Shown: piece by piece, positions 9,901 through 60,342 of the stretch | Numbering within the stretch: position 1 is the stretch's first letter | Layout of the letters: each line of letters begins with the position of its first letter | Origin: Emiliania huxleyi CCMP1516 | Taxonomy: Eukaryota | Direction: 5' to 3' | Assembly (NCBI RefSeq): GCF_000372725.1 | Contig: NW_005201421.1 | Location: 124,001 to 188,000, forward strand | DNA length: 64,000 nt | Made by a program: the position numbers and the translations under genes | The notes under the pieces: model-generated | What the model saw: the letters and a program-made list of their open reading frames with translations, nothing else | What the model was told of the DNA's origin: nothing | Database searches by the model: none

Positions 9901-10204
9901 GAGAACGGCACCCACTGCACCTACGACCACCCGCCGCCCACCACCTTCGAGGAGCTCCGCCGGCTCGGCCCGCCAAATTGCACCGCCATCGCGCCAACCT
10001 TCCGGCCCGGAGGTACAAACCGCACGGGCGTGCTCGCCTTTCCTTTTGCTTGTTCACCGCCTTCTTTTTTGTTTAGGCACCAACCACAAGGGCGTGCTCG
10101 ACTTCTGGCGGCGGCCGAAGCCGGCGTTCGCGATGGTGGCGGCAAAGTACCGCGCGGCGACGGGCAGGCCCACTGCCTCAGAGTCTGCGATTATTGTCCA
10201 GTAA
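6945..10204 (+). CDS. Secreted glycoside hydrolase family 2 (beta-glucuronidase/beta-galactosidase-like), multi-exon
   Basis: Signal peptide. Motifs VWVNGREVGDHLAGGYVAF, DFWHYGGITRSV, FGLRRF, LNGE..KLVGWNHH, VRGAHYPHDPRWLDRLDEAGILFW, WGWFNEG (acid/base), KPMMISETG (nucleophile) and NHKGVLDFWRRPKPAF. Many GC/GA/GT-AG introns. Confidence 0.9.
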
Positions 10205-11689: not shown

Positions 11690-12165
11690 AGAGCGGAACG
11701 TCGGCAGGCAGGTTCTGGGGATGCTGATGCACCCATCGCGCGCCGCGCGCCGCAACCACAGCTGGGTCGAAGTGACGCGAGTGGCGGCCGACTGCCTCGG
11801 CCTCCGCTATCCTGATGGCACACCGTTTGCCGAGGGAGCTTCCCGCGGCTTTCCCGACGACACCGGAGAGGGCGTCCACCGAGGCGACTACGGCTTGGGC
11901 CTTGGCACCGGGGAGGCGACCAACTCGAGCGCCGACCTTTTCCCATATGGTTGCTGGCTCTTCCGCGCTCGCGGCTCGGGTGTCTTTGTCAATGTCGGGC
12001 GCACCCTCGTGGTCAGCACGCGGCGCGACGCCCATACACACAGCGCTTGGCATCCCGTGCTCGCGAAGCAACTTTGGCTGCTACCACCCCGGCGACAAGC
12101 TGTACTGTACGCGAGCCATGGCGAGAGGGTACGACTCGATCCAGATCATGCGTGGTCGTGGGGGG
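11690..12165 (+). pseudogene. Frameshifted fragment of an uncharacterised protein family (WVEVTR…YGCWLFRARGSGVFVNVGRTL…GYDSIQI)
   Basis: Protein-like motifs are split across two frames directly upstream of the ankyrin ATG. Confidence 0.4.
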
Positions 12166-12239
12166 CTGCGCCGCAACACACCGAAAAGAGAAAAACCGCA
12201 CCCGCGGCTGGCACAGGTTTGCTCAGGAATTCTTGCGAA

Positions 12240-14372
12240 ATGGCGCGCCGCACTCCGCCGTCCGCGGAGGGCGTCGGCGACGTCCCTGCAAGCATTCGGA
12301 AGGCCGCCAAGGATGGCCAAGCGGGAACGGTGCTGGCGTGGTTCGACGGCGGCGGGTGGGTCGACGCGAGGCTCGAGTACACCTTTGGTGACGGCTCTCG
12401 TGCGAGCGGCATGACGCTGCTGATGCTCGCAATGGCCAATGGCCACGAGGAGCTGGCCGAGGCGCTTCTGCGGCGTGGCGCAGATGTCTCCTTGCAGCAC
12501 AGCAACGGTGGCACCGCGCTGAGCCTCGCCGCCGCGAACGGCCGCGAGAAGCTGGTCGAGCTGGCTTTGCGGCACGGCGCGGAGGTCAATAAGCAAAATA
12601 AGATTGGCAGCACAGCGCTGATGGACGCCGCCTACAAAGGCCACGAGCGGATTGTCGACACGCTGATCCGGCTCGGCGCAGAGATCAACCTGCAGGCCAA
12701 CAAGGGCGGCACCGCTCTGATGCTCGCCGCCGACGGCGGACACCCCGCCGTCGTGCTCCGCTTGCTGCGGGCGGGCGCTGACATGACGCTGCGCGACGTG
12801 TACGGTGAGACGGCGGTGCAGATCGCCAAGGAGAACGGCCACGCCGAGTGCGTCGAGGCTTTCAGGACGTATCTCGGGGAGGTGGCGACAGCTAGGAGCA
12901 AGGCGGCGTCGGCCGAGGCGGGCGGCGCAGGGGCGAACGGCGCACCCGCAGGCGAGGCGGCGGCGGGCGCCAGTGCCGTGGCCTCTGCTTTGATCGGCGA
13001 GGGCGGCACAGAGACCGCGCCGGGCAGCGAGGCGGCGCCAGAGGAGGTCGTGCTAGCGGCTCGGCGAGGCGACGGATTTCCGGTGCTGGCGTGGCTCGAC
13101 GGCGGCGGGCGGGCCGACGCGACGTTCGAGCACACCTTTGGTGACGGCTCTCGTGAGAGCGGAATAACACTGCTGATGGTCGCAGTGGGCAATGGCCACG
13201 CGGCGCTGGCCGAGGCGCTTCTGCGGCGCGGTGCAGATGTCTCGTTGCAGAACAGCAACGGCAATACCGCGTTGGGTCTCGCCGCAGTGAACGGCCACAA
13301 GAAGCTGGTCGAGCTGGCACTGCGGCACGGCGCGGAGATCAATCAGCGAAACAAGATTGGCAGCACAGCGCTGATGGCCGCCGCCTACGGAGGCGGCTTG
13401 CGGGTTGTCGACACGCTGATCCGGCTCGGCGCAGAGATCGACATGCAGAACAGCGACGGCCACACCGCTCTGATGGCCGCCGCCCTCGGCAACCATCCCA
13501 CCGTGGTGCTTCGCTTGCTGCGGGCGGGCGCAGACATGAAGCTGCGCAACGTGGTCGGTGAGACAGCGCTGCAGATTGCCAAGGAGAAGGGCCACGCCGA
13601 GTGCGTGCGCGCCCTCGAGGAGCATGCGGCGGCCAAGGCGGCGGCCGAGAAGGCGACGAAGGAGGCGGCGTGGGCTGCGGGGGCGGCGGAGAGGGAGGCG
13701 GCGAGGGCGGCGGAGGAGAAGGAGGCGGCGCGGCACGCCGACGAGCTGCTGGCGGAGGTCGAGGCTGAGAAGCGCGCCAAGGGCAAGAAGGGCAAGAAGA
13801 AGAAGAAGGGCGGAGGGGCGGGCGCGGCTGGGCCGTCGCAGGAGGCGGAGGAGGGTGCCGAGGCGCCGTCGGAGGCAGCTGAGGCCGCGAAGAAGGCCGA
13901 GGAGGAGAGAATGATGAGGCTTCTCGAGAAGTGTCACGAGGAGCGGATGCGGTTCGGCATCACGGCGGCGAGCCAGGCAGCGGCGTCGGCAGAGGTGGCT
14001 AAGGCGGCGCGCTTGGACGCTGCGGCGGACGAGGCGGAGGAGGAGGCAGAGGCGGAGGAGGAGGAGGCGGCGGCGGCCGTGGCGGCGCTGGCGGATGCCG
14101 AGGTGGATCGGGCGGAGGCCAGGGCGGCGCAGGTGGCAGCGACAGCAGCAGTGGAGAAGGTCATGGCGGCGCTGGAGGAGGCCAAGGCGGCGCTGAGCGA
14201 GGCCAAGGCGGCGCTGAGCGAGGCCGACTCGGCGCTTGAGGGGCGCGAGACGGAGCTTCAGGCGGCGATAGGCGCTGCAGAGGCCACGGGAATTGCTGCG
14301 GGCGCGGCGAGGGCCAGGGCGGACGCTGCCAGGGAGGCTGCGGATGCGGCCCAAAGCGATGCCGTTGCATAG
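12240..14372 (+). CDS. Ankyrin-repeat protein (two ankyrin modules, KGKKGKKKKK basic patch, Ala/Glu coiled-coil tail)
   Basis: Repeated GxTALMxAAxxGHxxxVxxLLxxGA motifs. Intronless. Probable start MARRTPP at 12240. Confidence 0.88.
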   Translation: MARRTPPSAEGVGDVPASIRKAAKDGQAGTVLAWFDGGGWVDARLEYTFGDGSRASGMTLLMLAMANGHEELAEALLRRGADVSLQHSNGGTALSLAAANGREKLVELALRHGAEVNKQNKIGSTALMDAAYKGHERIVDTLIRLGAEINLQANKGGTALMLAADGGHPAVVLRLLRAGADMTLRDVYGETAVQIAKENGHAECVEAFRTYLGEVATARSKAASAEAGGAGANGAPAGEAAAGASAVASALIGEGGTETAPGSEAAPEEVVLAARRGDGFPVLAWLDGGGRADATFEHTFGDGSRESGITLLMVAVGNGHAALAEALLRRGADVSLQNSNGNTALGLAAVNGHKKLVELALRHGAEINQRNKIGSTALMAAAYGGGLRVVDTLIRLGAEIDMQNSDGHTALMAAALGNHPTVVLRLLRAGADMKLRNVVGETALQIAKEKGHAECVRALEEHAAAKAAAEKATKEAAWAAGAAEREAARAAEEKEAARHADELLAEVEAEKRAKGKKGKKKKKGGGAGAAGPSQEAEEGAEAPSEAAEAAKKAEEERMMRLLEKCHEERMRFGITAASQAAASAEVAKAARLDAAADEAEEEAEAEEEEAAAAVAALADAEVDRAEARAAQVAATAAVEKVMAALEEAKAALSEAKAALSEADSALEGRETELQAAIGAAEATGIAAGAARARADAAREAADAAQSDAVA

Positions 14373-15794
14373 ACCATGCACTGTTTCTGGAGGGGCACGC
14401 GGGTTCGATTTTGCCGCGCATTCGGTTGTGTAACACGGGTTATACGTTTGCTGGGGCTGTACTTGTGTGGGGCGCGCATGCACACTATTCACTATTCTTA
14501 CACTAATTCACCACCATGCTCAACGTGCATATAAAAAGTGATCTCTCGTGCTGTGCATCCAGTACGTGATGGCCGGGCTGCGGTCTGCAGCTGCGCAGGC
14601 GCGCAGCCAGGCCGGGTCCAAAATGGGGGTCGAATACTCGCTGCCCCCGGAGAGGGACGACGGGTATCGACGCGGCCCCAGCAAGGTGTACGCCACAGTT
14701 CCCCAGGGGACCGTGGCGACGACCGTCGCCTCGGACTGGCTCGCGAAAGAGCTGGCCGAGCACGGAGAGATCGATGCGGCATACCGCGACCGCATAGTCA
14801 TGCACCTGATGACGGCCGCCGGCGCCTCGGCGCCGGCCGACGCCGTGTTCAGGTTCACGGCTGGCGACGCGATGCAGACCGAGGACGACGACGAGGACGC
14901 TGACCGCTCCGAGGATTATTCCGACGACGGGAGGGCGTCCGACTTGTAGCTGGCCTCACCCATATCTTACCCTCTGCCCCCCCCTCCTGCTACCCCCCAG
15001 GCTAGATGGTCACAGATAGCCCCACACAGCCCCTTACCCCTTCACCCTCGCCTCGCTGCTTGGTGTTTCTGAACACGTAGACGACCACGCTGTGGGGGTT
15101 GTGTTATAGGAGTAGGAGTGGGGTGCAGGTTGCTCACCCACGGCACCGGGCCGGTGCTTGCACTTTGAATGCCGTGGGGCTCCTGCCCGTGTCCCGGGCG
15201 TGGAGATGCGAGGGTCGCCCCCCCTTGCCCCACCACTTTGTGTGTGTGGAGACGTTTACCTTACCTTACCTTACCTTATCTCTCGTGCTCGCCACCTCCT
15301 GCGTGTGGGTGTGCCGTTGGGGGTGCCGTGCTCACTCGTCCACGGTCGCGGAGCGGCGGGGCGCGGCGGGGCTGGGGGCTCTCACTCTCCGCGGGGGGGG
15401 GAGCGGGGAGGGTAGCTTATGGTCGTGTGTGTGTGTGTGACTCGACACACTCACACTCACTTATGGTCGTAACTGAGGTTTGCATGCCGGAGGTAAGGCC
15501 GACGGGCGGCAAGGGCAACAATACGCTGAAAATCTCATTCTCGGGCGGCCCCTTTTCTCCGAGCACCGAGGGAGGGCTGAGGAGTCTTCATGTCGCCGAG
15601 CTCGTACCTCGCTCCTCGACCGAGGAGAGGACGATGTCGACCGCGCGCTGAGCCGAGCTCGAGCAGGAGAGACCGGGTGCGGTGCGGTGTCAACCTCTCC
15701 AGGTGGGGAGCGGGAAGAGGCCGGCAAAACCTCCGCGAATTCTTTTTTCGAAGCTGGGAGGAGCCGCTCAGCATCCGCAACCCCGCCCGTTTGC

Positions 15795-17825
15795 ATGCCC
15801 GGCCGAACGAAGGCTGGCTCGGCCGCGTCCCGGCGCGGGCACGCTTCAACGGCGGCTACTGCTGCGGCGCTCTCGCTGCCGAAAAGGATCGAGGCGGCGG
15901 CGGAGAACGGCAAGGTCGGCGTGGTGCAGACGTGGCTCGCCGGGGATGGGCGGGTTGACGCGACGTGCGTGCATAGCGGTGTGAGTGGCTGTACGCTCCT
16001 GCTGATCGCCGCCGAACACGGTCACAAAGAGATTGTCGAACTGCTGCTGAAGCGCGACGCGGAGGCGGACGCGCGCGACAGCGGAGGCGGTACGGCGCTG
16101 ATGGTCGCCGCCGCCAAAGGCCACGAGCGCGTGGCCGAGATGCTGCTGCGGCACGGCGCAGGGATCAACCTGCATAACAGTCTCGGCGGTACCGCGCTGA
16201 TGCTGGCCGCCCTCTACGGCCATCCCGCCGTTGTGCTCCGCTTGCTGCGGGCGGGCGCAGACATGAAAATGCGCGTTGCAGCGGGCAAGACGGCGCTACA
16301 GATCGCCAAGGAGGAGGGCCACGCCGAGTGCGTCGAGGCCGTCAGGACGTATCTCGGGGAGGTGACGGCAGCTCGGAGCAAGGCGGCGGCGGTCGAGGCG
16401 GGTGGCGCAGGGGCGAGCGGCGCACCCGCAGGCGAGGCGGAGGCGGGCACCAGTGCTGCGGCCTCTGCTTCGGGCGGCGAGGGCGGTGCGGAGGCCGCGC
16501 CGGGCAGCGAGGCGGTGCCAACGGAGGTCATGGACGCGGCTGGGGATGGCGATGAAGAGCCGGTGCTGGCGTGGCTCGACGGCGGCGGGCGGGTCGACGC
16601 GACGTTCGAGTGCACCTTTGGTGACGGCTCCTCTTCGAGCGGCATGACGCTGCTGATGGTCGCAATGTCCCATGGCCACGCGGGGCTGGCCGAGGCGCTT
16701 CTGCGGCGCGGTGCAGATACCTCATTGCTGACCAGCGACGGCATCAGCTATGCGCTGGGTCTCGCCGCTGTGAACGGCCACAAGAAGCTGGTCGAGCTGG
16801 CATTGCGGCACGGCGCGGAGGTGAATCAGCAAAACAATACCTGCGTCACTCCGCTGATGGACGCCGCCTACAAAGGCCACAAGCGGGTTGTCGACACGCT
16901 GATCCGGCACGGCGCAGAGATCGACATACAGGACAACGACGGCGACACCGCTCTGATGTTCGCCGCCCTCGGGGGTTGCCCCGCCGTCGTGCTTCGCTTG
17001 CTGCGGGCGGGCGCTGACATGACGCTGCGCGACGTGGACGGTGAGACAGCGCTGCAGATTGCCAAGGAGAAGGGCCACGCCGAGTGCGTGTCCGCCCTCG
17101 AGGAGCATGCGGCGGCCAAGGCGGCGGCCGAGAAGGCGACGAAGGAGGCGGCGTGGGCTGCGGGGGCGGCGGAGAGGGCGGCGGCGAGGGCGGCGGCGGA
17201 GGCGGAGGCGGCGAGGCACGCCGACGAGCTGCTGGCGGAGGTCGAGGCTGAGAAGCGCGCCAAGGGCAAGAAGGGCAAGAAGAAGAAGAAGGGCGGCGGG
17301 AGCGGCGGCGCTGGGCCATCGCAGGAGTCCGAGGCGCCGGCAGAGGCAGCCGCAGCCAAGCCCGCGCCTTTGGACAAGGAGGGGCTGCTCAAGCTTCTCG
17401 CGGAGCTCCACGAGGACAGGATCCGGTTCGGCATCACGCCGGAGACGTCGGTCGAGGGATTGGCGGAGGCGCTGGGAGAGGCGGCAGGCGAGGCGAGCGA
17501 GGAGGAGGGCGGCGAGGAGACGGCGGAGGCGGCCGAGGAGGAGGGCGAGGAGGAGGGCGAGGAGGAGGGCGAGGAGGCGGCAGCGGAGGCGGCAGCGGAG
17601 GCGCGCCGGCAGGCTGAGGCGGAGGCTGCGGCCGTGGCAGCGGCAGAGGAGGAGGAGGCTGCCGCAGCGGAGGAGGAGGCGGAGGAGGCGGCAGTAGCGG
17701 CGGCAGAGGCGGCGGCGGCAGAGGCGGCAGCGGCGGCGGCGGCGGCAGAGGCGGCGCTCGCCGCAGCCAAGGCGAGGCGCGCGTCAGTTGCCGCTGCGAG
17801 GGCCAGGGCGCGGGAGGCGGCCTAG
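15795..17825 (+). CDS. Ankyrin-repeat protein, tandem paralogue of 12240-14372
   Basis: Ankyrin motifs. Long near-identical DNA blocks are shared with the upstream paralogue (e.g. 17041-17295 vs 13558-13812). Confidence 0.88.
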   Translation: MPGRTKAGSAASRRGHASTAATAAALSLPKRIEAAAENGKVGVVQTWLAGDGRVDATCVHSGVSGCTLLLIAAEHGHKEIVELLLKRDAEADARDSGGGTALMVAAAKGHERVAEMLLRHGAGINLHNSLGGTALMLAALYGHPAVVLRLLRAGADMKMRVAAGKTALQIAKEEGHAECVEAVRTYLGEVTAARSKAAAVEAGGAGASGAPAGEAEAGTSAAASASGGEGGAEAAPGSEAVPTEVMDAAGDGDEEPVLAWLDGGGRVDATFECTFGDGSSSSGMTLLMVAMSHGHAGLAEALLRRGADTSLLTSDGISYALGLAAVNGHKKLVELALRHGAEVNQQNNTCVTPLMDAAYKGHKRVVDTLIRHGAEIDIQDNDGDTALMFAALGGCPAVVLRLLRAGADMTLRDVDGETALQIAKEKGHAECVSALEEHAAAKAAAEKATKEAAWAAGAAERAAARAAAEAEAARHADELLAEVEAEKRAKGKKGKKKKKGGGSGGAGPSQESEAPAEAAAAKPAPLDKEGLLKLLAELHEDRIRFGITPETSVEGLAEALGEAAGEASEEEGGEETAEAAEEEGEEEGEEEGEEAAAEAAAEARRQAEAEAAAVAAAEEEEAAAAEEEAEEAAVAAAEAAAAEAAAAAAAAEAALAAAKARRASVAAARARAREAA

Positions 17826-23002: not shown

Positions 23003-23118
23003 CATTCGCTCTCACCTGGCAACCCTGTCTGCACGTCTCGCGCGCGCGTGAACAGGGCTCCAGGCCCCAAATGACGTGTGAGTGTTAGAGTTGTTTGGTA
23101 TTGCTAAAAATCTCTCTC
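23003..23118 (+). mobile_element. Very short 3' stub of RLE-type non-LTR retroelement family A
   Basis: Matches the 3' end of 50064-50516 (cattcgctctcacctggcaaccc…gctaaaaatctctctct). Flanked by TTCACGCC repeats. Confidence 0.8.
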
Positions 23119-23197
23119 TTCACGCCTCGCACAACAGAGTTTTGTTGTCGACTTTGTCGCTTGGGGGCCTCCTCTACCTCTTCCTAGTACATGTATT

Positions 23198-23438: not shown

Positions 23439-24695
23439 ATGTCCACACCGCCGCGCCGCCGCTCGCGCCGCCTCGCCGCCGCCACCACCGCCGCCCCCTC
23501 GTCAGACGCGCCGCCGCCCGTCCGCTTGCTCGATCTCCCCAGGGAGCTCCTCGAGCGCGCCCTCTCTCGCTGCGACAGCCCCATCGACATCGCTCGCGTC
23601 GCGGCCGTCTCGCTGCTCTTTCACTCGCTCGCGGAGCAGGGCATCCGCTTGTGGGCGCAGGAGCGCGGCTTCGAGCTTCCGGCGCAGCCAGAGGGCGAGA
23701 GCTGCGCCGTGCGGTGGCTGTGCTATTCTGCGCTGCTGCGCGAGTCCAACCCGCCGGCGAGGGCTGCGGCAGGCCTTCATCACAGCGTCTTCATCGACGG
23801 CGAGGGGCGGCTCTCGTCGTGCGGCTCGGCGGATGGCGTGCCAGCCCTCCTCGGTCACGGCGAGGGCGTGACGCGGCTCAACACGCCGACCCGCCTCCCC
23901 CTTCTGGGTGGCGAGCGCGCCGTGAGCGTGTCGGCTGGAATGTGCCACAGCCTCGCCCTGACCGCTGACGCCGTCTGGAGCTGGGGCGGTGGACTCTTTG
24001 GCAAGCTGGGCCACGGCGACCAGCAGGCCCAGTGGCAGCCGAAGAAGGTCGAGGCCTTTGCTGGCCAGCGTGTCGTCGCTGCGTCGGCTGGAGGATACCA
24101 CAGCCTCGCCCTCACCGCCGACGGCTCCGTCTGGAGCTGGGGCGGTGGACTCTTTGGCAAGCTGGGCCACGGCGGCTATCTGGACCACTGGCTGCCCAAG
24201 AAGGTCGAGGCCTTTGCTGGCCAGCGCGTCGTCGCTGTCTCGGCAGGAGGCGACCACAGCCTCGCACTCTCAGCCGGCGGCGCCGTCTGGAGCTGGGGCT
24301 ATGGATTTTACGGCCAGCTGGGCCACGGCGGCTATCTGGACCACTGGCTGCCCAAGAAGGTCGAGGCCTTTGCTGGGCAGTGCATCGTCGCTGTCTCGGC
24401 TGGAGACGACCACAGCCTCGCCCTCACCGCCGACGGCGCCGTCTGGAGCTGGGGCCTTGGAGGCGATGGCCGGCTGGGCCACGGTGACGAGCAGCGCCAG
24501 CTCCTGCCGAAGAAGGTCGAGGCCTTGGCTGACCAGCACGTCGTCGCTGTGTCGGCTGGACGCAGCCACAGCCTCTCCATCACCGCCAGCGGCGCCGTCT
24601 TTACTTGGGGCAAGGGCGAAGCGGGGGGGGCAGGCAACGGAGAGGACCTGCCGAACCAACTGCTGCCCACGAAGATCGAGGCGCGGGAGCCGTAG
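23439..24695 (+). CDS. F-box-like + RCC1-repeat protein
   Basis: N-terminal LLDLPRELLERAL (F-box-like). Repeated VSAGxxHSLALTADGxVWSWGxGxxGxLGHG RCC1 blades. Intronless. Confidence 0.88.
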   Translation: MSTPPRRRSRRLAAATTAAPSSDAPPPVRLLDLPRELLERALSRCDSPIDIARVAAVSLLFHSLAEQGIRLWAQERGFELPAQPEGESCAVRWLCYSALLRESNPPARAAAGLHHSVFIDGEGRLSSCGSADGVPALLGHGEGVTRLNTPTRLPLLGGERAVSVSAGMCHSLALTADAVWSWGGGLFGKLGHGDQQAQWQPKKVEAFAGQRVVAASAGGYHSLALTADGSVWSWGGGLFGKLGHGGYLDHWLPKKVEAFAGQRVVAVSAGGDHSLALSAGGAVWSWGYGFYGQLGHGGYLDHWLPKKVEAFAGQCIVAVSAGDDHSLALTADGAVWSWGLGGDGRLGHGDEQRQLLPKKVEALADQHVVAVSAGRSHSLSITASGAVFTWGKGEAGGAGNGEDLPNQLLPTKIEAREP

Positions 24696-25274: not shown

Positions 25275-26243
25275 ATGAAGATGGAGTCCTGGGCGATGCG
25301 CGTCACCGTTCAGCGTCGCCTTGGGCTCCCCCTTGATGTCGCCTGCCAGGCGGTGGAGGCAGGCAAGAGGGCACCCAGCGGCCAGCTACACGACGTCCTT
25401 GGCGACGCCGCGATGGTTATCCCTCGGTCAAAGCATGCTACAAGACACAAATTCCTACTCAAACGTTTGATCAAATGCCTCCGCTCGGCGTGGGGCATGA
25501 TCATCGAGATGGAGCCGACTGCACACCTCAGTTACAGTAATCCAAAACAACCTGACGTGGCGGCGGCAAACATCGGCAGGGGGCACAGGCGCCTTGTTGC
25601 CGATTTGAAGCTCACGAGCTCGCTTGCGAGCCAGGGCAAGGACGCGGCCGGCGATGGAGAGCTCGGCTGGAAGGGGGCCTATGTACGTTTTGGCAACACG
25701 GAGACCGGGCTGCTCAAGTTGGTCAAAGGCCGCGGCAAGTGGTCTCCGTCGGGAGCGACGGCAGCGGCGGTGGCGGGGGAGGAGGAGGAGGCCGAGGAGG
25801 AGGGGGGGAGGAGGGGGAGGAGGAGGATGCCCCCAAGGGAAAGCTCAAGGAGCTGGATGGCGATTACCGCTTTGCGCGGGAGCAGGATTGCGATCTACAT
25901 TTGTTTGATTTTGAGGCTTTCGGAGGCTTTGGAAAGGAGGTTCGCAGCACCCTGAGGGAGGCGGCGAACCAGCTGAGCAACAAACTTTCGCACGCTCAGC
26001 ACCTGGACGAGGTCACATGGACCACCAAGAACTGGCACGGGCTGCAGATGCAGCGCTTGTCTGTCGTCCTCCACACCGCCGTGGCGTGGCAGACGGTGAA
26101 CGAGCTAGCGTGCGGGGAGAGCGGCATTGTGCATGGTGCGGAGTGCATTGCCGTTCTTAACGGAGTCGCTTAGGCGGCTCCGGTGGTGAGCCTGTGTGTG
26201 TGCCAGTCCGCGCCAGTCCGCGCCCTTGTCGTGCCAGTGTGCT
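25275..26243 (+). mobile_element. 5'-truncated, frameshifted non-LTR retrotransposon C-terminus with restriction-like endonuclease (CRE-like)
   Basis: QRRLGLPL…DVLGD…HATRH…EMEP…QPDV…VADLK…FGNTE; after a frameshift, FEAFGGFG…QRLSVVLH. This is the RH/E/PD/D pattern of RLE domains. Confidence 0.7.
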
Positions 26244-26282
26244 AAAGAAAGAAAGAAAACAGACAACCCAAGGGAGGGATGG
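26244..26282 (-). mobile_element. 39-bp 3' stub of (TTTC)n-tailed retroelement family B
   Basis: Matches the 3' ends of 60343-60576 and 50543-50651. TSD CAGTGTGCT at 26235-26243 and 26283-26291. Confidence 0.7.
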
Positions 26283-26390
26283 CAGTGTGCTGTGAGAGAG
26301 GCTTGTCTTTTAAGAATTCTTTTTGCTTTCGCGGCAAGGGTAACCGCGCGACAGAGCGCCGCCCCCCCGGCGCCCGCCTCGCTGCCCGCC

Positions 26391-29300
26391 ATGTGGAGTG
26401 CGAATGCCGCCTTTGGCCGCGTTGTCGAGGGCTCGCAGCTCCAGGGCCGCACCTTCCTCGTCACCGAGCCCGACGGCAGGCGCCGCGACGCCATCGAGCG
26501 CGCCGTGCAGGCTCTCGGCGGCGCGATCTGCTCGGCGGCGCCGTCCGCCGCGACACTCGAGATCTGCGCGAGCCGCGAGAATTGCGTGCTCGAGGGCGGC
26601 GAGCAGGTGACTCCCGACTGGCTCGTCTTCCAGATGCGCGTGTCGCAGCCGCTCGCGCCGGGGCTGTCTCCGCTCTTCCGCCCTCTTGGCGGGACGCCTG
26701 GCCGGGGCTGCGAGGGCGGCATCCCGGCACTCCGTGCCGTGGCCGTCTCGCTGGCCGGGTTTGCAGACGGGTCCCTGGCCAAGGCGCACTGAAGTAGGGG
26801 CTGCGCTGGTAGAGGAGGTGCGGGGCGGAGGCGTGGAGAGCGGCCCCTTCTCAGACCATCGAGCTGCGCGCAGGCGCACGCCCTGCTCCTCGTCGAGAGG
26901 ACCCAGCCCCTCTTCTGCGGCTTTGGATTCGACGGCCGCGCGACGCGCCTCGCCTGCCCCGCCTCCCGCCCGACGGCTGTCCAGCTGGTGGCGTGAGGGA
27001 GGGAGGGTGGGAGTAGGCATCTCGTCTGCTCGCACACCGACGCGGCCTCGGTGTCGCGTGCGAGGCCGGCGCTGCGCGAGGCGCTCGCGGCGAAGCGTGC
27101 GGCGGAGGGGGGTGGCGGGGAGGGGGGTGGCGGGGAGGGAGGGGGTGGTCTGGAGGTGGTCCACGTCGGCTGGCTCGAGGCGTGCGTGCGGCAGTGGGGC
27201 AAGGTTCCCGAGGGGCGGTACCGCCTCGGGGCGGAGCATGTGACTCACCCGCAGGAGGAGGAGGCGGGGAGGCGGGCGGAGAGGCGGGAGGGGAGGGGGG
27301 CGGAGGGGGAGGAGGAGAGGGCGGAGCGACGGAGCGGCGGAGCAGGGAGGGAGGCGGAGGAGGGGCGGGCCGCGGGAGGAGGAGCAGCTGGCCGCCGTCC
27401 AGCGGGCTCTGCCCCTCTCCCCGCCCGCTCCGCCGCCGCCGCGCAGCAGCAGCAGCAGCGCCGCCGCGACAGCAGCGCCGCCGGCGGTCACGGCGGTCGG
27501 GGCGCTCGCTCGGCGACGACGCGCTGCGAGCAAATCATTCCTCCTCCATCCTTCATCATTGTTGAACAGGTCGCTTGGCCCGCGACGACGCGCTTCGAGC
27601 CGCGATCCAAGCAGCGCCTGCCACAGGCGAGGCCAAGCGCCCTCCCGCGCGGCGGCTGTGAACAGCGTCTCTTCACACCTGCACCTGTGAACAGGGGGGG
27701 GAGCCGCCCTCCCGCGCGGAGGCTCCGCCTTCGTTAAGCGGCTCCAGCCTTCCCACGTGGCGGGCGGGTGCTTGCTGCAGCTTCCGCAGGAGATGGACGG
27801 GCTATGAACAGCGTCTCTTCACGGCGGCGGCTGTGGGCAGGTACTGGCTGCAGCTGCCGCAGGAGATGAACGGCCAGTTGCCGGCCGAGGACTGGCCGGC
27901 GGTGCTGGTTGCGGGAGGGGGGGAGTGGACGTGCCAGTACCTCCGGCGGCCAGGCCACAACAACGGCGGCATCTCGGGAGGATGGCAAAGCGGCGCACGG
28001 CCGGCGAGACGGGCTCCGCGGGCGGCGTCTCTTCACGGCTGGCACTGTGGACAGGCGCGGCTTCGCGGTCGACCAGCGGCTCTGCGTCGGTGACGCGGTC
28101 GTCTTCCGCATCGGCGTCGGCGCCTCGGCCCGGCCGGCCGCTGGCGAGCCGCTGACCGTGCACGTCGCGCTCTTCCGCGCTAAGTGCGGAGGGGCCGAGG
28201 TGGCGGCGGAGAGGCAGGGGGCGGCCTCTTCACAGCCGCGGTGTGTGCGCAGGTACGGAGGCACCGAGGGGGCGGCGCAGGCGTTCGCGAGGCGGTGGGT
28301 GCGCGGCGAGCAGGCGCCGGGCGGCGGGTGGCAGGCCCTAGTAGCGAGGAATGAAAGAAGGAATGACTCGCTGCTGGTTCACAGGCGTCAGTCGGCGGGC
28401 GGCAGGGCGCGCTCGTCCTCACTGCGCTGCCCCTCCCCCGTCAGAAAGAGGGCTGCGGCGGAGTGAGAAGAGAGCTTGCCACCAGGCGCGCTCGTCCACC
28501 CGGCGCTGCACGTCTACTCTGACGCGGCCAAGCGTTTCCCGCCCTCGGCCCGGGCGGGGAGGCTCGCGTCGGAACGAGTCCACGCGCGGGAGCCGGGAGG
28601 TGGGGAGGCCGTGCGTGTGAGCAGCGTCTCTTCACACCTGTGGCTGTGGGGCAGGTGCCGAGCGGGGAGGCGTGGAGGCTGGAGGAGCATGCGAGGTGGG
28701 CGCTCGAGCTGGCTGCTCCGGCGCCGTCGCTCCTCCTTCGACAGCACCGACGAGGTCGCCTCTTCACACCTGCTGGCTGAGGCGCAGGCGCCGTCGCGCC
28801 GCTCCTTCTTCGACAGCTCCGACGAGGAGGGGCAGGAGGAAGAGGGGGAGGAGCGGGAGCGGGAGCAGCAGCAGCAGGGGGAGGGGCGGGGGCTGGGGGA
28901 GGGAGGGGGGAAGGGCGGCGGTGGAAGGGCACCGCAGATCGGACGAGCCGCCGAGCAGGCGGCGGCGCAGGCGGCGGCGCAGGCCGGGAGCGCCCATCGC
29001 TCCGCCTCCGCCGCCGCCACGGCTGCTGCCGCTGCCGCTGCCTCGTCGTCGTCGTCCTCCTCCTCCTCCTCCTCCTCTCGCTCTGCCTCCCCCGCCCGCG
29101 CAGCCGCCTCTCGCGAGCGCATCCCTCCTCACGCGCCTCCCGACGCCGCATCGGTGCCGCGCGTGGGCGACGCGGCGCGGTTGACCGAGGCCGATGTCGG
29201 GTAGGGGCTGGTCCATGATCCGACTAGGTGCGGGCGTGGCTCGTCGCGGCGGCGGCGATCCCGTCGGAGCTGCGCCTCTCCAGGGCGGGGCGCGGAGTCG

Positions 29301-31066
29301 AGGGCTGGTACGACCCCGACGGTCGGTCGGATGAGGCGGAGATGAGGAAGTACCGCGGCTTCTGCCGGCAGGGAGACTGGAAGTGGGCTGGCGACTCGGC
29401 GGGCGAGGTGGGCCGCCGCCTGATGGAGCTGCGGCGGTATGCGGACGCGGCGGTGTGGCACGCGGCGGACGTGGCGTGCCAGCTGCTCGAGAGGGAGAAG
29501 GAGCGAGGCGGGGCGGCGCACGGCGCGGCGCTCGTCGGAGGCGCTGCACCACGGCACGCGAAGATATGGGGAGAGAGGGGGGGAGAGGGGGGGAGAGGGG
29601 GAGAGAGAGGGGGAGAGAGGGGGGGAGAGGGGAAGAGAGGGGGGGAGAGGGGGCTGCACCACGGCACGCGAAGCGCCGCTCCTCGGCTCGAAGGGAGGCT
29701 GTGAGTCCGAAGGGAGACTGTGAGTCCGGCCCTCACGCCGTGCACCATATCTCCCCATATCTCCACTCCGTGCAGCCGCTCCTCAGGCACAAGAGAAGCC
29801 GCTTCTCGGCCAACGACCTCTGTATCGCGCTCGACCGGCGGGGGGAGTGCGAGCGCTGCTCCGTCCGCTACTACGACGAGGAGGGCCTCGCGCTGCTCGG
29901 CTCTGCGGCGCACGCCTTCGAGGCGATGCGGCTCGAGGCCGAGGTCCGGCTGTGAACAGCGTCTCTTCACACCTCTAGCTGTGAACAGGCGATGCGGCTC
30001 GAGGCCGAGGTCCGAGATATGGGGAGATATCTCGAGATATGGGGAGATATGGGGAGATATGGGGAGATATGGGGAGATATGGCTCGAGGCCGAGGTGCGA
30101 GAGGGGCCGAGAGGGGCCGAGAGGAGGGGCAGATTTGCCGAGACGTTTGGGGGGGGAGAGGGGGGGGGGGGTTGGCCGACGGGAGGCGAGGCTCGCTCAG
30201 GCCGAGCCGGAGCTGCGGGCGGGCGTGCTGACCCGTCCACGACCCGTCCGCGACACGTCCGCGACGCTGTCCCGTGCCCTCAGGCGGCGCTGCGTGAGGC
30301 GGGTCTGTCGTCCGAGCAGCGGGGCGAGCTGGCCGAGCGGCGCAGCGACGCGCGCCAGCCCGAGGGGCGTGGGCTGCTGCCTCTGCTCGGGCGCGTGCGA
30401 GGAGGCGGCGCTCTGCACTCTGTAGGCGGTCGAGCGGAGGGCGACGCTGGAAGAGGCGCGGGTGGGATCTGAGCGAGAGCAAGTAGACGCCTCTCGGGCC
30501 CCGCGTGTGAGGGCACAGTGTGGTGTCGTAGGCGTGGCGCGAGGCGCTGCAAGACTCGCAGGGAGAGTCGCAAGAGGCGTCGCAGCACGAGGCTGGGTCT
30601 GGGGCGGACTCTGAGGAGGGGGAGGGGGAGGAGGAGGGGGAGGGGGAGGGGGCCGAGCCCGCCTCCGAGGGCGGCGATGCGCCCGTCCGCTCGCCCGGCC
30701 TCGAGGAGAGCGTGTCGCCCGCCCGCCTGCTGCCAGCGGGGGGGCGCCGGCCCAAGGCTGCCTGGCAGGTGCATGGGCAGGCGAGGCGTCGGAGCAGCGC
30801 CTCTTCACACCTCCTCCTGTGGACAGGGGGCCGGCCGGGCCGTCCTCTCCTCCTCCTCCTCCTCCTCCTCCTCCTCCTCCTCCTCTTCCGACGGAGGCGA
30901 CGACGACTCGGACCGAGAGCGGCGCGGCGGCGCGGCGGCGAAGGCGGCCTCTCCTCCTCCTTCGAGCGGGGCAGCGGCGGCCGCAGCGCACGCCCTTCCC
31001 GCCGCCGCGCCGCGGAGGAGGAGCGAGCGGCCGAAGAGGCCCGCGGGCGGGTGGGTCGACGACTTA

Positions 31067-31106
<40 letters not shown>

Positions 31107-34100
31107 TGTGACACAAAGGATGTAATATAACGACCCCAGGCGTGGCGCACCCTCCGCCGCCGACGCCACCCCGCCGCGCCAAGCCAAGCCACGCCGCCGC
31201 TGCGGGCCCGAGTGCGGCCCTTGCACCCGCCGCCGCCGCCGCCCCGTCCCACGCCGCTGCACACGCCGCCGCCGCCACTTCCGCCACTTCCGCCGCCGCC
31301 GCCCCGGCTGCCGCGCCGCCCTCTGCGCCTACGGCGCGGGTGTGGGACGACAGCAGCGAGGACGAGGCGGGGCTGCCGCCGGGCGGCGCTGGAGGCGGAC
31401 TGGCAGGGCACGGGCGGAGGCGGCCGCGGCCGGCGCCGGCGCCGCAGTCGCTCGCGTGGCGGAGCAAGGGGCACGCGTGGGTGGAGAGCCGGCACAAGGC
31501 GCGCCGCTGGAGCGAGTGACTCCCGGGCCGCGTGTTCTGGTGAAGTCACGGGGTGGAGGGGGGTGCACAAGGTGCGTCGCTTCTTCGAGACGACGCCGGG
31601 CGGCGTGGACGGGCTAGTGGCGCAGTACCTCCCTCCGGGCAAGGACGAGGACGAGGACCCTGAGGTGTGGCGAGGTCCGGCTGTGAACAGCGTCTCTTCA
31701 CACCTCTAGCTGTGAACAGGACGAGGACCCCGAGATGTGGCGCGTGGTGCACGACGGCGACGGCGACGAGGAGGACCTGGACTTCGACGACGTGGTGGAC
31801 GCGCTCATCGCAAAGGAGCCTCGAGGGCGGGGGAGGGGGGGAGGGGCGGCGGTCCGAGGCTTTGCTCACTCGTCGATGGGTCGCTTAGGACCTCAACCAC
31901 AAGAGCGCCGACGAGATGGAGGGGGTGCGGCACGAGGAGGAGCGGCAGGAGCGGCTGTCTCGCGCGCAGAGGCTCGAGACGCGCAGCCACCACTGCAGCG
32001 AGAACCAGACGCCGCGGCTGGTGGCGCGCCGTGCGGCGTCTCGCCATGCGCCCCCACTCTCGGGGAGCCTCGGGGTCGGGAATAGGTCGCGGGGCTGTAT
32101 GGCGTCTCGCTGCCTCTGCTCCTCCGGCTCGCCCTCGAGTCGGGCCGCGGGAGCGTGGCGCAACTCGACTCAGTAATCAACCGCGTGGTCGTGAGGTAGG
32201 CTCAACCTCAAGTCGGACCGCGGGAGCATGACCGACCACCTGCTCCTCAAGGCGAGATCATAAGGAATTAATAGAATGAATTAATTGTCGGACCGCGGGA
32301 GCATGACCGACCACCCTGCTCCTCAAGGCGAGATCATAATGAATTAATTAATAGAATGAATTAATTGTCGGACCGCGGGAGCATGACCGACCACCTGCTC
32401 CTCAAGGCGAGATCGGGCCCGAGATAGGGCTCAGATCGAGCCGAGATAGGGCTCAGATCGAGCCGAGATCTGACCGAACCCCCCCCACCCCCGCCCCTCA
32501 AGGCGGGCACGAGGGCGAGCAAGCGCGGCTTCGTCCTCCTCCTCCCGGCCTTCCGCATCGACGGCGCGCGCACAGAGGCGGAGCCGCAGCAAGCGGCGGC
32601 GCGGGGGCGGCGCGGGGCCAAGGGCAGGCCGGCGCAGCCCCACCCGCAGGCGGCGGCGGCGGGCGAGGAGGCGGAGGCGGCGGGGGTCGAGGAGGGGGGT
32701 GCGGCGGGGGGCGGGTAGGGGGGCGCGGCGCAGTCGTCGGCTGCGGCACGTGAGGTGGCAGCGAGGACAGAGGCAGCCGGGCCGGAGGCAGCCGGGCCGG
32801 AGGCAGCCGGGCCGGAGGCAGCCGGGCCGGAGGCGGGGGAGGCGGCCCAGGCAGCCGTCGAGGGGGCAGCGGAGGAGGTGCGGCGGGCGGAGGCGGCGGT
32901 GGCGGGGACGGCGGCGGACATGCCGGCCGATGCGATGGCAGCGGAGGCGGCGGAGGCGGAGGCGAGGGAGGGTGGCTATGCGGAGGAGGATGCGAAGGAG
33001 GATGCGGAGGAGGAGGAGGGTTCGGGGGGCGCCGCCGCAGCAGCCTCCGCCGCAGCTGCGGCGGCCGCGGCGTCGGAGGGAGTGGGTGCGATGACGGAGC
33101 CTGAGGCGGACGACGAGACCGACCCGGAGGCGCTGACGGAGCCGGAGCCAGACCCGGAGGCTGAGCCGGAGGCGGGGGCGGAGGCGGGGGCGGAGGCGGG
33201 GGCGGAGGCGGGGGCGGAGGCGGGGGCGAGGAGAGCGGCTGTGGAGGAGCAGCCGCGGGCGCGAGAGGCGGCGCAGCTTGCAGCGTCGGGGGCGGCCCGG
33301 GCTTGTCTTGCAGCGGAGTCTCCTCGAGCGGAGGAGGGTACGGCGGAGGGGCATGCGGCACAGAGGCGACTGGAGGGGCGCGGAGGAGGGCCCAGCAGGC
33401 TGGCGGGGCCCAGGCGGGCTGTGGCGGGGCCGGGCCGGGCGGGCGCTGCGCCGGCTCCGCTCGTCATGCAGGTTGGGGAGGGGGTCGGGGGGGGGTCCCG
33501 GGGGGGTCTCAGGTGGTGCGCTCGCAGGCGGTGATTTCCCCGGGGGGGCTGCTCCCAGGTGGTGGGCGGCGGGGACGAGTCTCCCGTGCGAACGCTGCTG
33601 CGCGAGCTGGCGGGGCGGCTGGGCGGCGAGTACTTCGGCTCCTCCTCGTACGACCCGGGCTGCCGCCACCGTCGGGGTCGAAACACGTTCGAGAGGAGGA
33701 NNNNNNNNNNNNNNNNNNNNNNNNNNNNNNNNNNNNNNNNNNNNNNNNNNNNNNNNNNNNNNNNNNNNNNNNNNNNNNNNNNNNNNNNNNNNNNNNNNNN
33801 NNNNNNNNNNNNNNNNNNGAGAGAGAAGGGGGCAGGCTCTACGCTGCGGCATGGGCCCGCCCTGGACGCATCCCTCTGTCCCCGCCCCCCCCCCCTTCCC
33901 CTCCGGCAGGCGCGTGGCTGCCCGAGGAGGCGCACGAGCTCTTCTCCGCCGGGGAGGCGACTGCGCCGTGCGGCAGTACGGGGCTGCTTCTAGGAGCCTT
34001 CTAGGAGCCTTCTAGGAACCTTGTAGGCGACTGCACCGTGCGGCAGGGGGCTGCTCTGGCTGGGCGCGCCGCGGGCGCACCGGCTGGCGCGGCCGCAGCG

Positions 34101-34535
34101 CGGCGGCGGCGTCTTCGTCGGCCAGACCTTCGCCCTCGATCCAGAGGTCGTGCCACCGCCCGCGCAGCTACGACGCATCATCGAGGCGGGCGGGGGGGCC
34201 GTCCTGGAGCAGGGCGCGCCGCTGCGCGTGGGCGCCATCGCCGTCGTGCCAGACGGGGCGGACGCATCGCACCCGCTCGCCCAGGAGGCGCGTCTATTCC
34301 CCTCCCGCCCGCCCGACACCCTCCCAAAGGGTCCTCCTCACCCCTCGCCGGGGTGAGTTGGTCGAGACTCGCACACTTCGCACTAACCCGCGCTCCTGCA
34401 GACACCCTGCTCCGTCACAAACTCTTCTGTTCTTCGTGTCTGGCGCAGGCGACGCGCGCGCAGGCTTCGCGAGTGGGGCCGAATGAGCTGCTCGGGCGGC
34501 TGGTCGGCTTGGGTGTCGCGTCACTCGCAGGATGA
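26391..34535 (+). CDS. Large multi-exon BRCT protein (N- and C-terminal tandem BRCT) with internal B3 DNA-binding domain and Tudor-like domain; spans an N gap
   Basis: N-terminal BRCT: AVQALGGAI…VTPDWL…LFRPLGG…GIPAL…HLVCS…VVHVGWLEACVRQWGKVPEGRY. B3: AFVKRLQPSHVAGGYWLQLP…YL…GISGGWRGFAVDQRLCVGDAVVF. Tudor-like: WRVVHDGDGDEEDLD. C-terminal BRCT: LAGRLGGEY…WLPEEAHE…APRAHRL…LRRIIEAGGGAV. It could be two genes. Confidence 0.7.
31068..31106. repeat. (AAT)n microsatellite
   Basis: Directly visible. Confidence 0.95.
32212..32414 (+). repeat. Three copies of a ~48-bp GC-rich unit separated by AT-rich linkers
   Basis: gtcggaccgcgggagcatgaccgaccacctgctcctcaaggcgagatc x3, with linkers containing gaattaatagaatgaattaatt. 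Confidence 0.9.
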
Positions 34536-35254
34536 AACTGCTTGCCTGCTACATGTGTACTGTACAGTAGCGGTACTCTACGTCTCAGGTCGCACAAACG
34601 TGTGGAGCTACGTACATCATGATTCATGTCTCTATACACACATGAACATCTCCCCCCGCCACATGCACATCTCCCCGGGAGCTCCGGCGCGTGGGCTTAA
34701 AGCCACACGGCAAGCACACACATGTTTGACATTCCCTTACTTGCTCTCTCACATGTCTGCGTGCCGGGGACTCCGTGCCGAGAGCGCTCGAGCCGAGGAG
34801 CGAGGTCTGCCCGTGCCGCGCGTGGCGCGTGCGCCGGTGCGCGGTGCACAGACAGAGTCCACCCGTTTCGGGCTTCGCGACTCAGCACAGCGACCTCTCT
34901 CTCCGGGTTTGCAGGGTTGCTGGCCGTATGTTGTGCTGCATGAACAGGGGGTGGGGCAGCAGAATGGGCTGGCCAGTTTCCCCTTTCCCCATTCAGGCTG
35001 CCCATTTCTCGGGGGCGGCACCTGCCGCTGCGGTGCCAATGATCGACTCCTCCTCATCATGTCGCCTCGGCGACAATGGTCGCGCCATCGTCGGTAGTCA
35101 CGCCTATGGACGCTTCGGTAGAGTGAGAGGAGGTCATCCGAGTGGGGCGCAGGCGGTGGATGCAATCGAGTGGGAGGGGGGTAAAGGGGCGCAGGACCGG
35201 GCTGCAACACACCCACCTATAACTCCTCTAAGCCCTGCGCTCCCACCCGCTCGC

Positions 35255-37249
35255 TCAACTTTCTCTCTCCAGGGAAGGCAGCGTAGTACCTGCAACGCTC
35301 GTCACCGTTTGCTTGGGCACAAACCTGCCCTTGTCCCCGCGTTCGCGACTTGTCGCAATGGCTTTCCGCGAGCCGGGTCCGCCTGAAGTGCTGGGGCGGG
35401 CCTCCGCGCCGCGCTGGATCAGCAAGTCGACCACCCGCTCCTGGCCGTTGACAGCGGCGACCATCAGCGCGGTGCCGCCGTCGCTGTTCTGCAGGTCGAC
35501 CTCCGCGCCTCGCCGCAGCAGCAGCTCGACCACCCGCACTTGGCCTTGGTGGGCGGCAGCCGCCAGCGTGGTCCAGCCGTTGCTGTTCTGCTGGTCGATC
35601 GCCGCGCCGCGCTGAAGCAGCAGCTCGACCACCCGCTCGTGGCCGCTGGCAGCGGCGGCACCTAGCGGGGTCTCACCGCCTAGCTTGCAAGAAGCATTGA
35701 CCCGCCCGCCGCTTTCGAGCCACGCCAGCAGCGCCGCCTCGTCGCCTCGCCCGGCCGCGGCCACCGCCGCTGTAACGCTGCCCAGCTCCCTGCCCAGCTC
35801 CCTGCCCAGCTCTGTAAGGCTGCCCAGCTCCGCCTCTGTAAAGCTGGAAGAGACCGCTTCGCCCGAGGAAGCGCTGCCTGCGCCGCCCGCCGCCGCCTCG
35901 CGCTGTCTCGCAGTCACCTCCGCGATGTGCTGCCGGAAGGCGGCGACGCACGCGATGTGGCCCTGCTCCCTGGCCATCTGCAGCGCGGACTTGCCGTCCG
36001 TAGTGCGCAACTTCGTATCCGCGCCCGCCCGCAGCAATTGGAGCACGACGAGGAGCTGGTCGGAGTAGGCGGCGACCATCAGCGCGGTGCCGCCGTCGCT
36101 GTTCTGCTTGTTGATCTCCGCGCCGCGCTGCAGTAGCAGCTCGACCACCCGCACTTGGCCTAGGCCGGCGGCGGCCGTCAGCGCGGTCTGGCCGGCGTTG
36201 TTCTGCAGGTCGACCTCCGCGCCGCGCTGGATCAGTACGTCAACGACCCGCTCGTGGCCGTTGCCAGCGGCGATTTGCAGCAACGTGAAACCCGCACTAT
36301 CGAACGCGTTCACCTGCCCTCCGCTGTTGAGCCACGCCAGCAGCGCCGCCTCCTCGCCTCGCGCAGCCGCTTGCCTGGCCTCTTCGGGAAGGCTGCCCAG
36401 TGAGCCGGAAAAGGGCGCGCCCGCCGCCTCGCCCGAAGGAGGCGCACCCGGCGCCGCCCGGGACCGCCCGGGCCGGCCCGGGCCGGCCCGCGGCCGCCTG
36501 AGTCTGCCCGGGCCCGGCCGGGCCGCCCCGGACCGGCCCGGGACGGCCGGGGACCGNNNNNNNNNNNNNNNNNNNNNNNNNNNNNNNNNNNNNNNNNNNN
36601 NNNNNNNNNNNNNNNNNNNNNNNNNNNNNNNNNNNNNNNNNNNNNNNNNNNNNNNNATAGGGCGCGCCCGCCGCCTCGCCCGAGGGAGCGCCACCCGCGG
36701 GCGCCCGCGCCGCCCGCGCCGCCCGCGCCGCCCGGGCCGCCCGCGCCGCCCGCGCCGCCCGCGCCGCCCGCGCACGCCCGCGACGACCGCGCCGTCCGCC
36801 GCCGCCTCGGGCTGTCTCGAAGTCACCTCCACAACGTGCTGCCGGAAGGCGGCGACGCACGCGGCGTGGCCCTGCTTCTTGGCCAGCTGCAGCGCGGACT
36901 TGCCGTCCGTAGTGCGCAACTTCGTATCCGCGCCCGCCCGTAGCAAGCGGAGCACGACGGCGGGGTGGCCGTTGCGGGCGGCGAACACCAGCGCAGTCTG
37001 CTTAGTGCTGTTCTGCTTGTTGACCTCCGCGCCACGCTGGATCAGCAAGTCGACTACCCGCTCCTGGCCGCTGCGGGCGGCGAACATCAGCGCGGTGACG
37101 CCGCTCACACCGCCTTTCCTGCAAGTCGCGTTGACCTTCCCGCCGCTGTCGAGCCACGCCAGCAGCGCCGCCTCCTCGCCTCGCCCAGCCGCTTGAAATG
37201 CCGCTTCGGGAAGGCTGTCGGTCTCCGGCACGATCGTTGCTAGCGCCAT
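35255..37249 (-). CDS. Ankyrin-repeat protein (three modules), spans an N gap, 3' end apparently truncated
   Basis: Ankyrin motifs in each module, which begins AAxRGxEAALLAWLxSGG. The last repeat stops at LIQRGAE and runs into unrelated sequence near 35400. Confidence 0.75.
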   Translation of the reverse strand: MALATIVPETDSLPEAAFQAAGRGEEAALLAWLDSGGKVNATCRKGGVSGVTALMFAARSGQERVVDLLIQRGAEVNKQNSTKQTALVFAARNGHPAVVLRLLRAGADTKLRTTDGKSALQLAKKQGHAACVAAFRQHVVEVTSRQPEAAADGAVVAGVRGRRGRRGRRGRPGRRGRRGRRGRPRVALPRARRRARPXXXXXXXXXXXXXXXXXXXXXXXXXXXXXXXXXXRSPAVPGRSGAARPGPGRLRRPRAGPGRPGRSRAAPGAPPSGEAAGAPFSGSLGSLPEEARQAAARGEEAALLAWLNSGGQVNAFDSAGFTLLQIAAGNGHERVVDVLIQRGAEVDLQNNAGQTALTAAAGLGQVRVVELLLQRGAEINKQNSDGGTALMVAAYSDQLLVVLQLLRAGADTKLRTTDGKSALQMAREQGHIACVAAFRQHIAEVTARQREAAAGGAGSASSGEAVSSSFTEAELGSLTELGRELGRELGSVTAAVAAAGRGDEAALLAWLESGGRVNASCKLGGETPLGAAAASGHERVVELLLQRGAAIDQQNSNGWTTLAAAAHQGQVRVVELLLRRGAEVDLQNSDGGTALMVAAVNGQERVVDLLIQRGAEARPSTSGGPGSRKAIATSRERGDKGRFVPKQTVTSVAGTTLPSLERES

Positions 37250-37292
37250 TGGCACCGTAAACTTTTTCAGTACCGTCGGGTACTTATTTTAA

Positions 37293-59653: not shown

Positions 59654-59729
<76 letters not shown>

Positions 59730-60162: not shown

Positions 60163-60342
60163 CCTCGGGTGGTGGTTCCTCGGGTCGTCGTGGTGGTTCT
60201 GCGACCACTGCTCGCTCAAGCAGGTCGAGAAAAAATAATCTCCGATCCCTCCCTTCATTTGTCCCTTTTTTTTTTCCCTCGAGAGCCGGAAAAAGAGAAA
60301 AAGAAAACCCCGCTCGCAAGCCTCGCCGACACCCTTTACCGC

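Follow-up and report, generated by a model that had tools for sequence, protein, structure and literature searches.

How new spliceosomal introns originate is a long-standing question, and most of the bursts of intron gain described so far are tied to ordinary transposons. The question is raised here by a region at 26391-34600 on the plus strand of a 64,000-nt stretch of the Emiliania huxleyi CCMP1516 genome (contig NW_005201421.1, positions 124,001-188,000; hereafter, the window), comprising one gene or more and marked by spliced joints, an open frame, and a weak BRCT_2 match. A first-pass annotation, made from the sequence alone, had described at least nine of its introns as ending in one shared ~40-nt module with an AG acceptor and, mostly, as beginning with a copy of the start of the next exon. 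These module introns are real, genome-wide, and recent, and stand apart from known introners through the length of their duplications, a chimeric inheritance, and independence of the filler. There is, in our judgement, about an even chance that they are recently gained spliceosomal introns that arose when templated repair of a staggered break joined a duplicate of the next-exon start to the 3′ end of another intron.

All nine named introns, which lie on the plus strand, share the module: a 14-nt core with at most two mismatches was found at eight, and the ninth (ending at 28252) carries a degenerate copy recognized by eye. The reference module (40 nt, 29949-29988) has 11-nt direct repeats at both ends, an imperfect inverted copy in its middle, and a branch-point-like TTCAC ~20 nt before the AG that may act as the branch point. 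A 16-nt tail pattern gave seven matches against 0.35 expected, and because a profile scan of the rest of the window returned only two weak module-like sites (9194 and 10325; shuffled windows give 0-2), the copies cluster in one gene region. No Rfam family matched within 26000-35000. The hairpin that had been proposed for the module found little support in DNA folding (z = -0.95 for the sense strand and -2.3 for the antisense strand), and a strong hairpin was rejected as the key feature on these scores.

The copy of the exon start is clear in six of the nine (those ending at 27694, 27840, 28252, 28787, 29988, and 31719); the intron ending at 28654 is a borderline case, and none is seen in those ending at 28054 and 30826. 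In the young GC-AG intron 29923-29988 (66 nt), the 28-bp repeat 29921-29948/29987-30014 is perfect, as first described; the same site is present in metagenome locus L096, a 98-99%-identical copy, with one mismatch near the repeat end. The young GA-AG intron 31650-31719 (70 nt) consists of a 23-nt duplication (23/25 matches between 31648-31672 and 31718-31742), 7 nt, and then the module. Direct comparison confirmed that 29941-29989 and 31672-31720 are the same 49 nt, and the 7 nt between duplication and module in the second intron are common to the duplication end of the first, which is likely its parent. The other copies comprise 27627-27694 (GC-AG, 68 nt; 5′ part a copy of the exon at 27695, gapped score 14), 27768-27840 (GT-AG, 73 nt; diverged module, 33-nt duplication with 29/35 matches including 2 nt upstream), 27985-28054 (GC-AG, 70 nt; duplication no longer detectable), 28184-28252 (GT-AG, 69 nt; 28-nt duplication), 28584-28654 (GC-AG, 71 nt; borderline 26-nt duplication), the 5′-truncated 28715-28787 (~41-nt gapped duplication), and 30757-30826, with 30757 as candidate donor. 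For the intron ending at 28787 the donor is uncertain, as 28706, 28712, 28715, and 28721 all preserve the frame.

When the first six of these introns and three non-module introns were removed, one open frame ran from 27063 to ~29199; retaining any one of eight of the nine shifts the frame, and the other (28184-28252) is in frame and stop-free if retained. The claim that intron removal restores the reading frames holds for a single open frame; Pfam scans of single exons did not confirm the B3 and Tudor-like domains, their sole match in the host gene being the weak BRCT_2 hit at 34027-34287. A motif in the spliced translation appears B3-like. A homologue search with the exon 27842-27985 found none.

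Splicing was assessed in four runs from four studies aligned as contigs, whose RNA status is a guess from their spliced behavior, since their joints match neighboring introns. A joint 31647->31718 that skips 70 nt, compatible with GA-AG 31650-31719, occurred in three of the four runs, and a 70-nt skip at 33957-34026 in all four; the other joints, among the 15 of 232 listed, agree with neighboring introns. The donors of the introns starting at 27502, 27985, and 28584 are predicted from the distance to the end of RNA pieces, which appear to end at donor 27985 in X7 and X10 and at 28583 in all four runs. The junction of 29923-29988 is ambiguous, because a single GT-AG intron 29944-30094 would yield identical mRNA; of the two young introns, the proposed RNA check bears out 31650-31719. 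Within 29944-30094, a second intron (30010-30094) is made of 10-nt GAGATATGGG repeats, with a duplication around it that straddles both splice sites, and L096 has one repeat unit fewer. Outside the window, removal of six introns, two of them module introns, from the Sec61-alpha gene in metagenome locus L070 gave a product identical over 386/386 residues, with no gap, to P0121, an E. huxleyi CCMP1516 protein that is also present in a transcriptome collection. Metagenome loci L036 and L096 match unique window parts at 98-99% over the shared sequence and, together with the P0121 identity, lead us to assign the window to E. (Gephyrocapsa) huxleyi. An assembly or collapse artefact, or chance, could be suspected in a draft genome that is GC-rich and repetitive, but the same site in an independent assembly (L096), the spliced joints, the 386/386 protein match, and controls near zero make it extremely improbable.

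A scan with a 19-nt core recovered 120 loci from 25 of the 64 parts of the metagenome collection. By hand count, one assembly contained 77 loci and another 25, with seven common to both, which suggests a minimum of roughly 275 sites with an exact core; because just three of the nine window copies match the core exactly, the true size of the family is likely greater. The module was absent from the viral contigs, and prokaryote genomes gave five matches against 4.3 by chance, none with the tail. Among 133 exact core matches, 106 were distinct with enough flank and 100 had the usual AG end, of which 73 had an ungapped duplication score of at least 12, compared with 0/3000 random pairings. In a set of 129 sites (the exact sites, degenerate neighbors, and the nine window sites), scored with gaps allowed, the next-exon-start duplication reached that score at 100, compared with 1/400 control pairs. 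By the introner criteria of PMC12130899, similar introns were found in at least four non-paralogous genes (12 sites in different Pfam families, 129 distinct sites) and at new positions, but similarity does not extend to both exon-intron boundaries, as only the 3′ ~40 nt are common and the 5′ part is target-derived. The module introns work like the class that co-opts a 5′ and carries a 3′ splice site.

The architecture was described from 102 sites scoring at least 11. Introns are 59-79 nt long (median 68) and duplications 14-47 nt (median 28). Donors are GC at 50 sites, GT at 34, GA at 12, and other at six; the preceding base is G at 84/102, and both duplicate copies have the same dinucleotide at 86/102. 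The proposal that the module supplies the acceptor and the left duplicate a GC, GT, or GA donor, so that splicing is seamless and introns appear at new positions, is supported genome-wide. Duplication and insert length are anticorrelated (r = -0.86, n = 57; a value somewhat inflated because the measured duplication ends include junction overlap), and introns longer than 79 nt number zero against 6.9 expected; the simplest reading of this length clamp is selection for intron definition. Mismatches between duplicates fall evenly over codon positions (18/18/21), which fits the intron copy being the drifting one. At codon positions 1 and 2 across loci, 23 mismatches pair G/C in the intron copy with A/T in the exon, and two go in the opposite direction.

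Module orientation mostly follows the gene. Pfam scans covered 300 of 367 open frames downstream of the sites and 78 of 337 upstream, the upstream set being chosen by us. At all 12 sites with Pfam matches the domain is on the sense strand of the module, and at L006 and L070 the matches on the two sides of the site are contiguous in the profile. A codon model assigned 83/102 sites to the sense strand, and 56/59 among confident calls. The module is quasi-palindromic and its position weight matrix (PWM) matches both strands, so a PWM strand-concordance count was discarded. Antisense copies exist: in L074, two of them stand in tandem where an intron meets an exon, and L024 contains an inverted copy at a distance of 28 bp from its likely parent, a sense copy that has the same tail. 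This inverted copy forms a GC-AG intron of 68 nt that draws both splice sites from the duplication, and the frame is restored when it is removed.

Comparison with paralogues and relatives indicates that these introns are gains, because a paralogue lacks them and related haptophytes apparently do too. The intron sets of the paralogues L072 and L074, whose exons are 78-88% identical, differ for the most part, and L072 lacks the module insertions of L074; likewise, the distant paralogue L059 has no interruption at the L017 site. Relatives of Sec61-alpha (97% identity), whose cluster contains a Tisochrysis lutea protein, are single open reading frames (ORFs) of 386-470 aa that span all six intron positions and, coming from contigs of up to 19.7 kb, probably represent unspliced DNA. 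No ancient intron could be established in L070 for comparison. These results bear on a further explanation, in which reverse splicing carries whole introns to sense positions within exons and a copy of the next exon, templated by mRNA, replaces their 5′ part, or in which overwriting homogenises old introns in place. Reverse splicing would account for the sense and exon bias, a duplicate starting exactly at the junction, and the near-constant length; yet antisense copies exist, parent and child differ in length by up to 10 nt, and purely in-place overwriting is excluded by positions that are absent from the paralogue and apparently from relatives, so that we consider this account very unlikely.

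Among 86 sites (3655 pairs), three pairs with at least 13 nt in common upstream of the core also share the parent's own duplication: L001/L111 (21 nt, 19 of them within L111's own duplication), the window sites 31719/29988 (14 nt, nine within), and L072/L065 (13 nt, 10 within). The variable tail is shared within all three, compared with a background of 151/3655 pairs; three such pairs arose in 1/300 shuffles, and none carries the parent's next exon. Because these pairs share the parent's own duplication sequence, introns have been copied from introns. A mere species-wide acceptor consensus was rejected on the parent-child sharing, the inverted copies, and the clustering. Rather than a fixed ~40-nt module, the insert is a variable-length 3′ part of an existing intron, sometimes with part of the parental duplication. 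At the 5′ junction, duplicate and insert overlap by 3.6 nt on average (24 junctions), compared with 0.76 in a rough simulation.

The same design also occurs with unrelated inserts. A module-blind scan of the loci yielded 141 duplication-type candidates (89 module, one reversed, and 51 other fillers), compared with none in shuffled loci; the other fillers, which include some ordinary repeats and some sites counted on both strands, comprise 11-nt and 10-nt tandem repeats, AT-rich, and unique sequences, with length and donors similar to those of module introns. In Sec61-alpha, five of the six introns have 12-18 matches in their first 24 nt. Non-module plus-strand introns of the host gene are 27502-27569 (GC-AG; duplication and pyrimidine/AT-rich filler), the predicted 28314-28384 (GC-AG, 71 nt) and 28407-28485 (GC-AG, 79 nt; 24-nt duplication), all three frame-restoring, and 33957-34026 (GC-AG, 70 nt; 20-nt duplication and 11-nt tandem-repeat filler). 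Because unrelated fillers have the same design, the module likely represents a single template that has done well within a more general process. Further candidates in the window are 9120-9194 (decayed module), 10013-10076, 32127-32199, and 47327-47392 (minus strand), and on the minus strand a tandem 75-nt unit at 32212-32414 combines AT-rich filler with a perfect duplication of 28 nt.

The terminal repeats of the module are direct, not inverted, and with duplications of 14-47 nt this led to rejection of a DNA transposon with terminal inverted repeats (TIRs) or a miniature inverted-repeat transposable element. There is a close likeness to Replitron-1/-N1 of Chlamydomonas reinhardtii, for which the descriptions (10.1101/2022.12.15.520654, PMC10288648) give direct repeats at the termini, one end that is fixed and one that is fuzzy and derived from the parental flank, and variable target duplications. 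The module might be a minimal non-autonomous element of this HUH, copy-and-paste type that inserts beside a dinucleotide. All four Replitron-1 signatures, as published there, have a counterpart in the module introns, including the short direct repeats and the combination of parent-flank end and variable target duplication, and the same sources report putative Replitrons in two other haptophytes. Starts in GC, GT, or GA (119/129) bear on an orientation-specific dinucleotide target, though donor selection explains them and antisense copies differ. Inverted copies do not abut G-Y, the hairpin is poorly supported, unrelated fillers show the same design, and the module, at 40 nt, falls short of the ~53 nt that can be aligned at either Replitron terminus (10.1101/2022.12.15.520654). 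Replitrons are described there as 0.9-3.6 kb long and dependent on an HUH transposase; none is linked to the module, and no HUH match appeared among the 61 of 92 long window ORFs that were scanned, a weak test. Replitrons are also under-represented in coding sequence and introns (PMC9977147). On balance, we regard this origin as unlikely, though it is the main rival of templated repair.

A reverse transcriptase of a long interspersed nuclear element (LINE) or Penelope element could alternatively retropose excised intron RNA by target-primed reverse transcription, leaving 5′-truncated copies with long variable duplications. Module copies do have a 3′ end fixed at AG and a variable 5′ end, with 5′ microhomology and variable duplications, any intron could act as template, and elements without long terminal repeats (non-LTR) give long variable duplications (PMC9977147). 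However, there is no poly(A) or simple tail, as copies end at AG directly on the duplication; copying runs ~20-35 nt beyond the putative branch point, which requires debranched RNA; loop-inverted modules require DNA-level events; and no reverse transcriptase was found in the window. We consider this route distinctly unlikely. The loop-inverted 'flop' form, in which the central loop is inverted relative to the arms, was seen at L005 (~1375-1412), L012 (~100-135), L028 (~1470-1530), and L064 (~1490-1530). ORF fragments at 25290-26170, which had no Pfam match, appear to resemble the restriction-like endonuclease end of a non-LTR retrotransposon.

The preferred explanation, templated repair, draws on known activities: templated insertions are a product of polymerase theta, and tandem duplications result from paired nicks. 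Two offset nicks ~15-45 nt apart would open the gene body; a broken end would then be lengthened with an existing intron, often from close by, as the template, so that the branch point and AG of that intron are copied; and the ends would rejoin by a few nt of microhomology, with fill-in duplicating the target. Only left copies starting G|GC, G|GT, or G|GA with a total of ~60-80 nt would be spliced cleanly and survive, each product could be the template for the next event, and a dedicated transposase would not be required. We lean slightly toward excised intron RNA rather than DNA as the template, because the copied piece ends exactly at AG. In its broader form, a transposase-free, self-templating process that patches gene-body breaks with the 3′ end of whichever intron is available or with new filler, the donor coming from the long target duplication, would have built a large share of the introns and caused both the 61-65% GC donors and the GA donors; this is possible, though we place it somewhat below an even chance. 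Tandem duplication-plus-module arrays (L013, L015, L022, L035, L058, L066, L074, and L110) likely come from slippage between two target copies.

Several points weigh against templated repair. As 119/129 sites begin with GC, GT, or GA, copies outside exons are rare, and extra targeting to transcribed genes must therefore be assumed, since random breaks with selection predict many neutral intergenic copies. No enzyme was identified, 27/129 sites lack a clear duplication, and the published insertion signature of Replitron-1 fits the module in its terminal direct repeats, in a fuzzy end that comes from the parent, and in a duplication of variable length. The length anticorrelation and the microhomology excess carry the inflation and the rough simulation noted above. 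A comparison of duplicate with module divergence, proposed at the outset, gave only a weak correlation of module conservation with duplication score (rho 0.17, p 0.06, n = 120). Likewise, the proposed presence/absence check showed absence from the paralogue and apparently from relatives, but all-versus-all BLAST of the module-selected loci revealed no de novo event and no within-species empty allele.

One known system, with a 4-bp duplication and TIRs, is similar in that the repeated insert gives the AG, the duplication gives the donor, the mRNA is unchanged, and GC and GA donors occur. In E. huxleyi, by contrast, the duplication spans 14-47 bp, or ~40% of the intron; direct repeats form the ends; the 5′ end varies and derives from the parent; and several unrelated fillers act in the same way. 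Introns have reportedly also been gained by tandem duplication or double-strand-break repair, as in the Rogers model and Daphnia. There, the duplicated exon is said to supply the splice sites, as in the antisense L024 intron, but such gains are sporadic, whereas the E. huxleyi acceptor piece is reusable and recurs hundreds of times. The Amoebophrya introners (PMC7789003) likewise have repeats at exon-intron borders and non-canonical donors, but with 3-5-nt direct repeats and 8-20-nt TIRs, whereas E. huxleyi keeps the AG acceptor. For E. huxleyi itself, the supplement of PMC9860276 lists, in the part examined, five CCMP1516 introner families with 653 copies and mean lengths of 70 and 37 nt, and that of PMC12130899 lists fam24, with five copies, '10bp terminal direct repeats', and the label co-opt 5′, carry 3′. 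The module may belong to one of these catalogued families, as length and direct repeats fit, compared by description only. The families are classed there as 'Unknown', with duplications given as '?', 'N', or 2-4 bp; the supplement rows examined record neither a long duplication nor parent-to-child carry-over, and the main texts of both papers do not mention Emiliania. We found no published account of long exon-start duplications or parent-child carry-over in this species in a search that left most subscription papers, including the original genome paper, outside its scope.

Elsewhere in the window, a ~200-bp direct repeat (23204-23400/24988-25181, 93.5%) surrounds an intronless F-box/RCC1 gene (23439-24695), and the RCC1 protein is absent from the protein cluster collection. 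A perfect 451-bp inverted repeat (44464-44914/50067-50517), its arms separated by 5.2 kb, is possibly a TIR element; 117 bp of one end recur at 23003-23119. An intronless 1226-aa ORF at 56824-60501 (minus strand) has a DnaJ domain and a weak C-terminal Herpes_UL52 primase-like match (E 9e-4), and intronless ankyrin-repeat genes, 65-87% alike, cluster at 11277-17822 and 35258-37288.

If templated repair is the true origin, E. huxleyi would have an ongoing route to new introns and a possible explanation of its unusual GC and GA donors. PMC4028052 ascribes the GC-donor majority to genome GC content; a donor copied from an exon inherits that exon's first two bases, which offers a testable cause for the same majority. 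Standard introner pipelines, in which both ends have to be similar, would find too few members of such families, and read aligners will misplace such junctions. Because the duplicate dates each intron and the carried-over piece names its parent, lineages of intron gain would be traceable within one genome.

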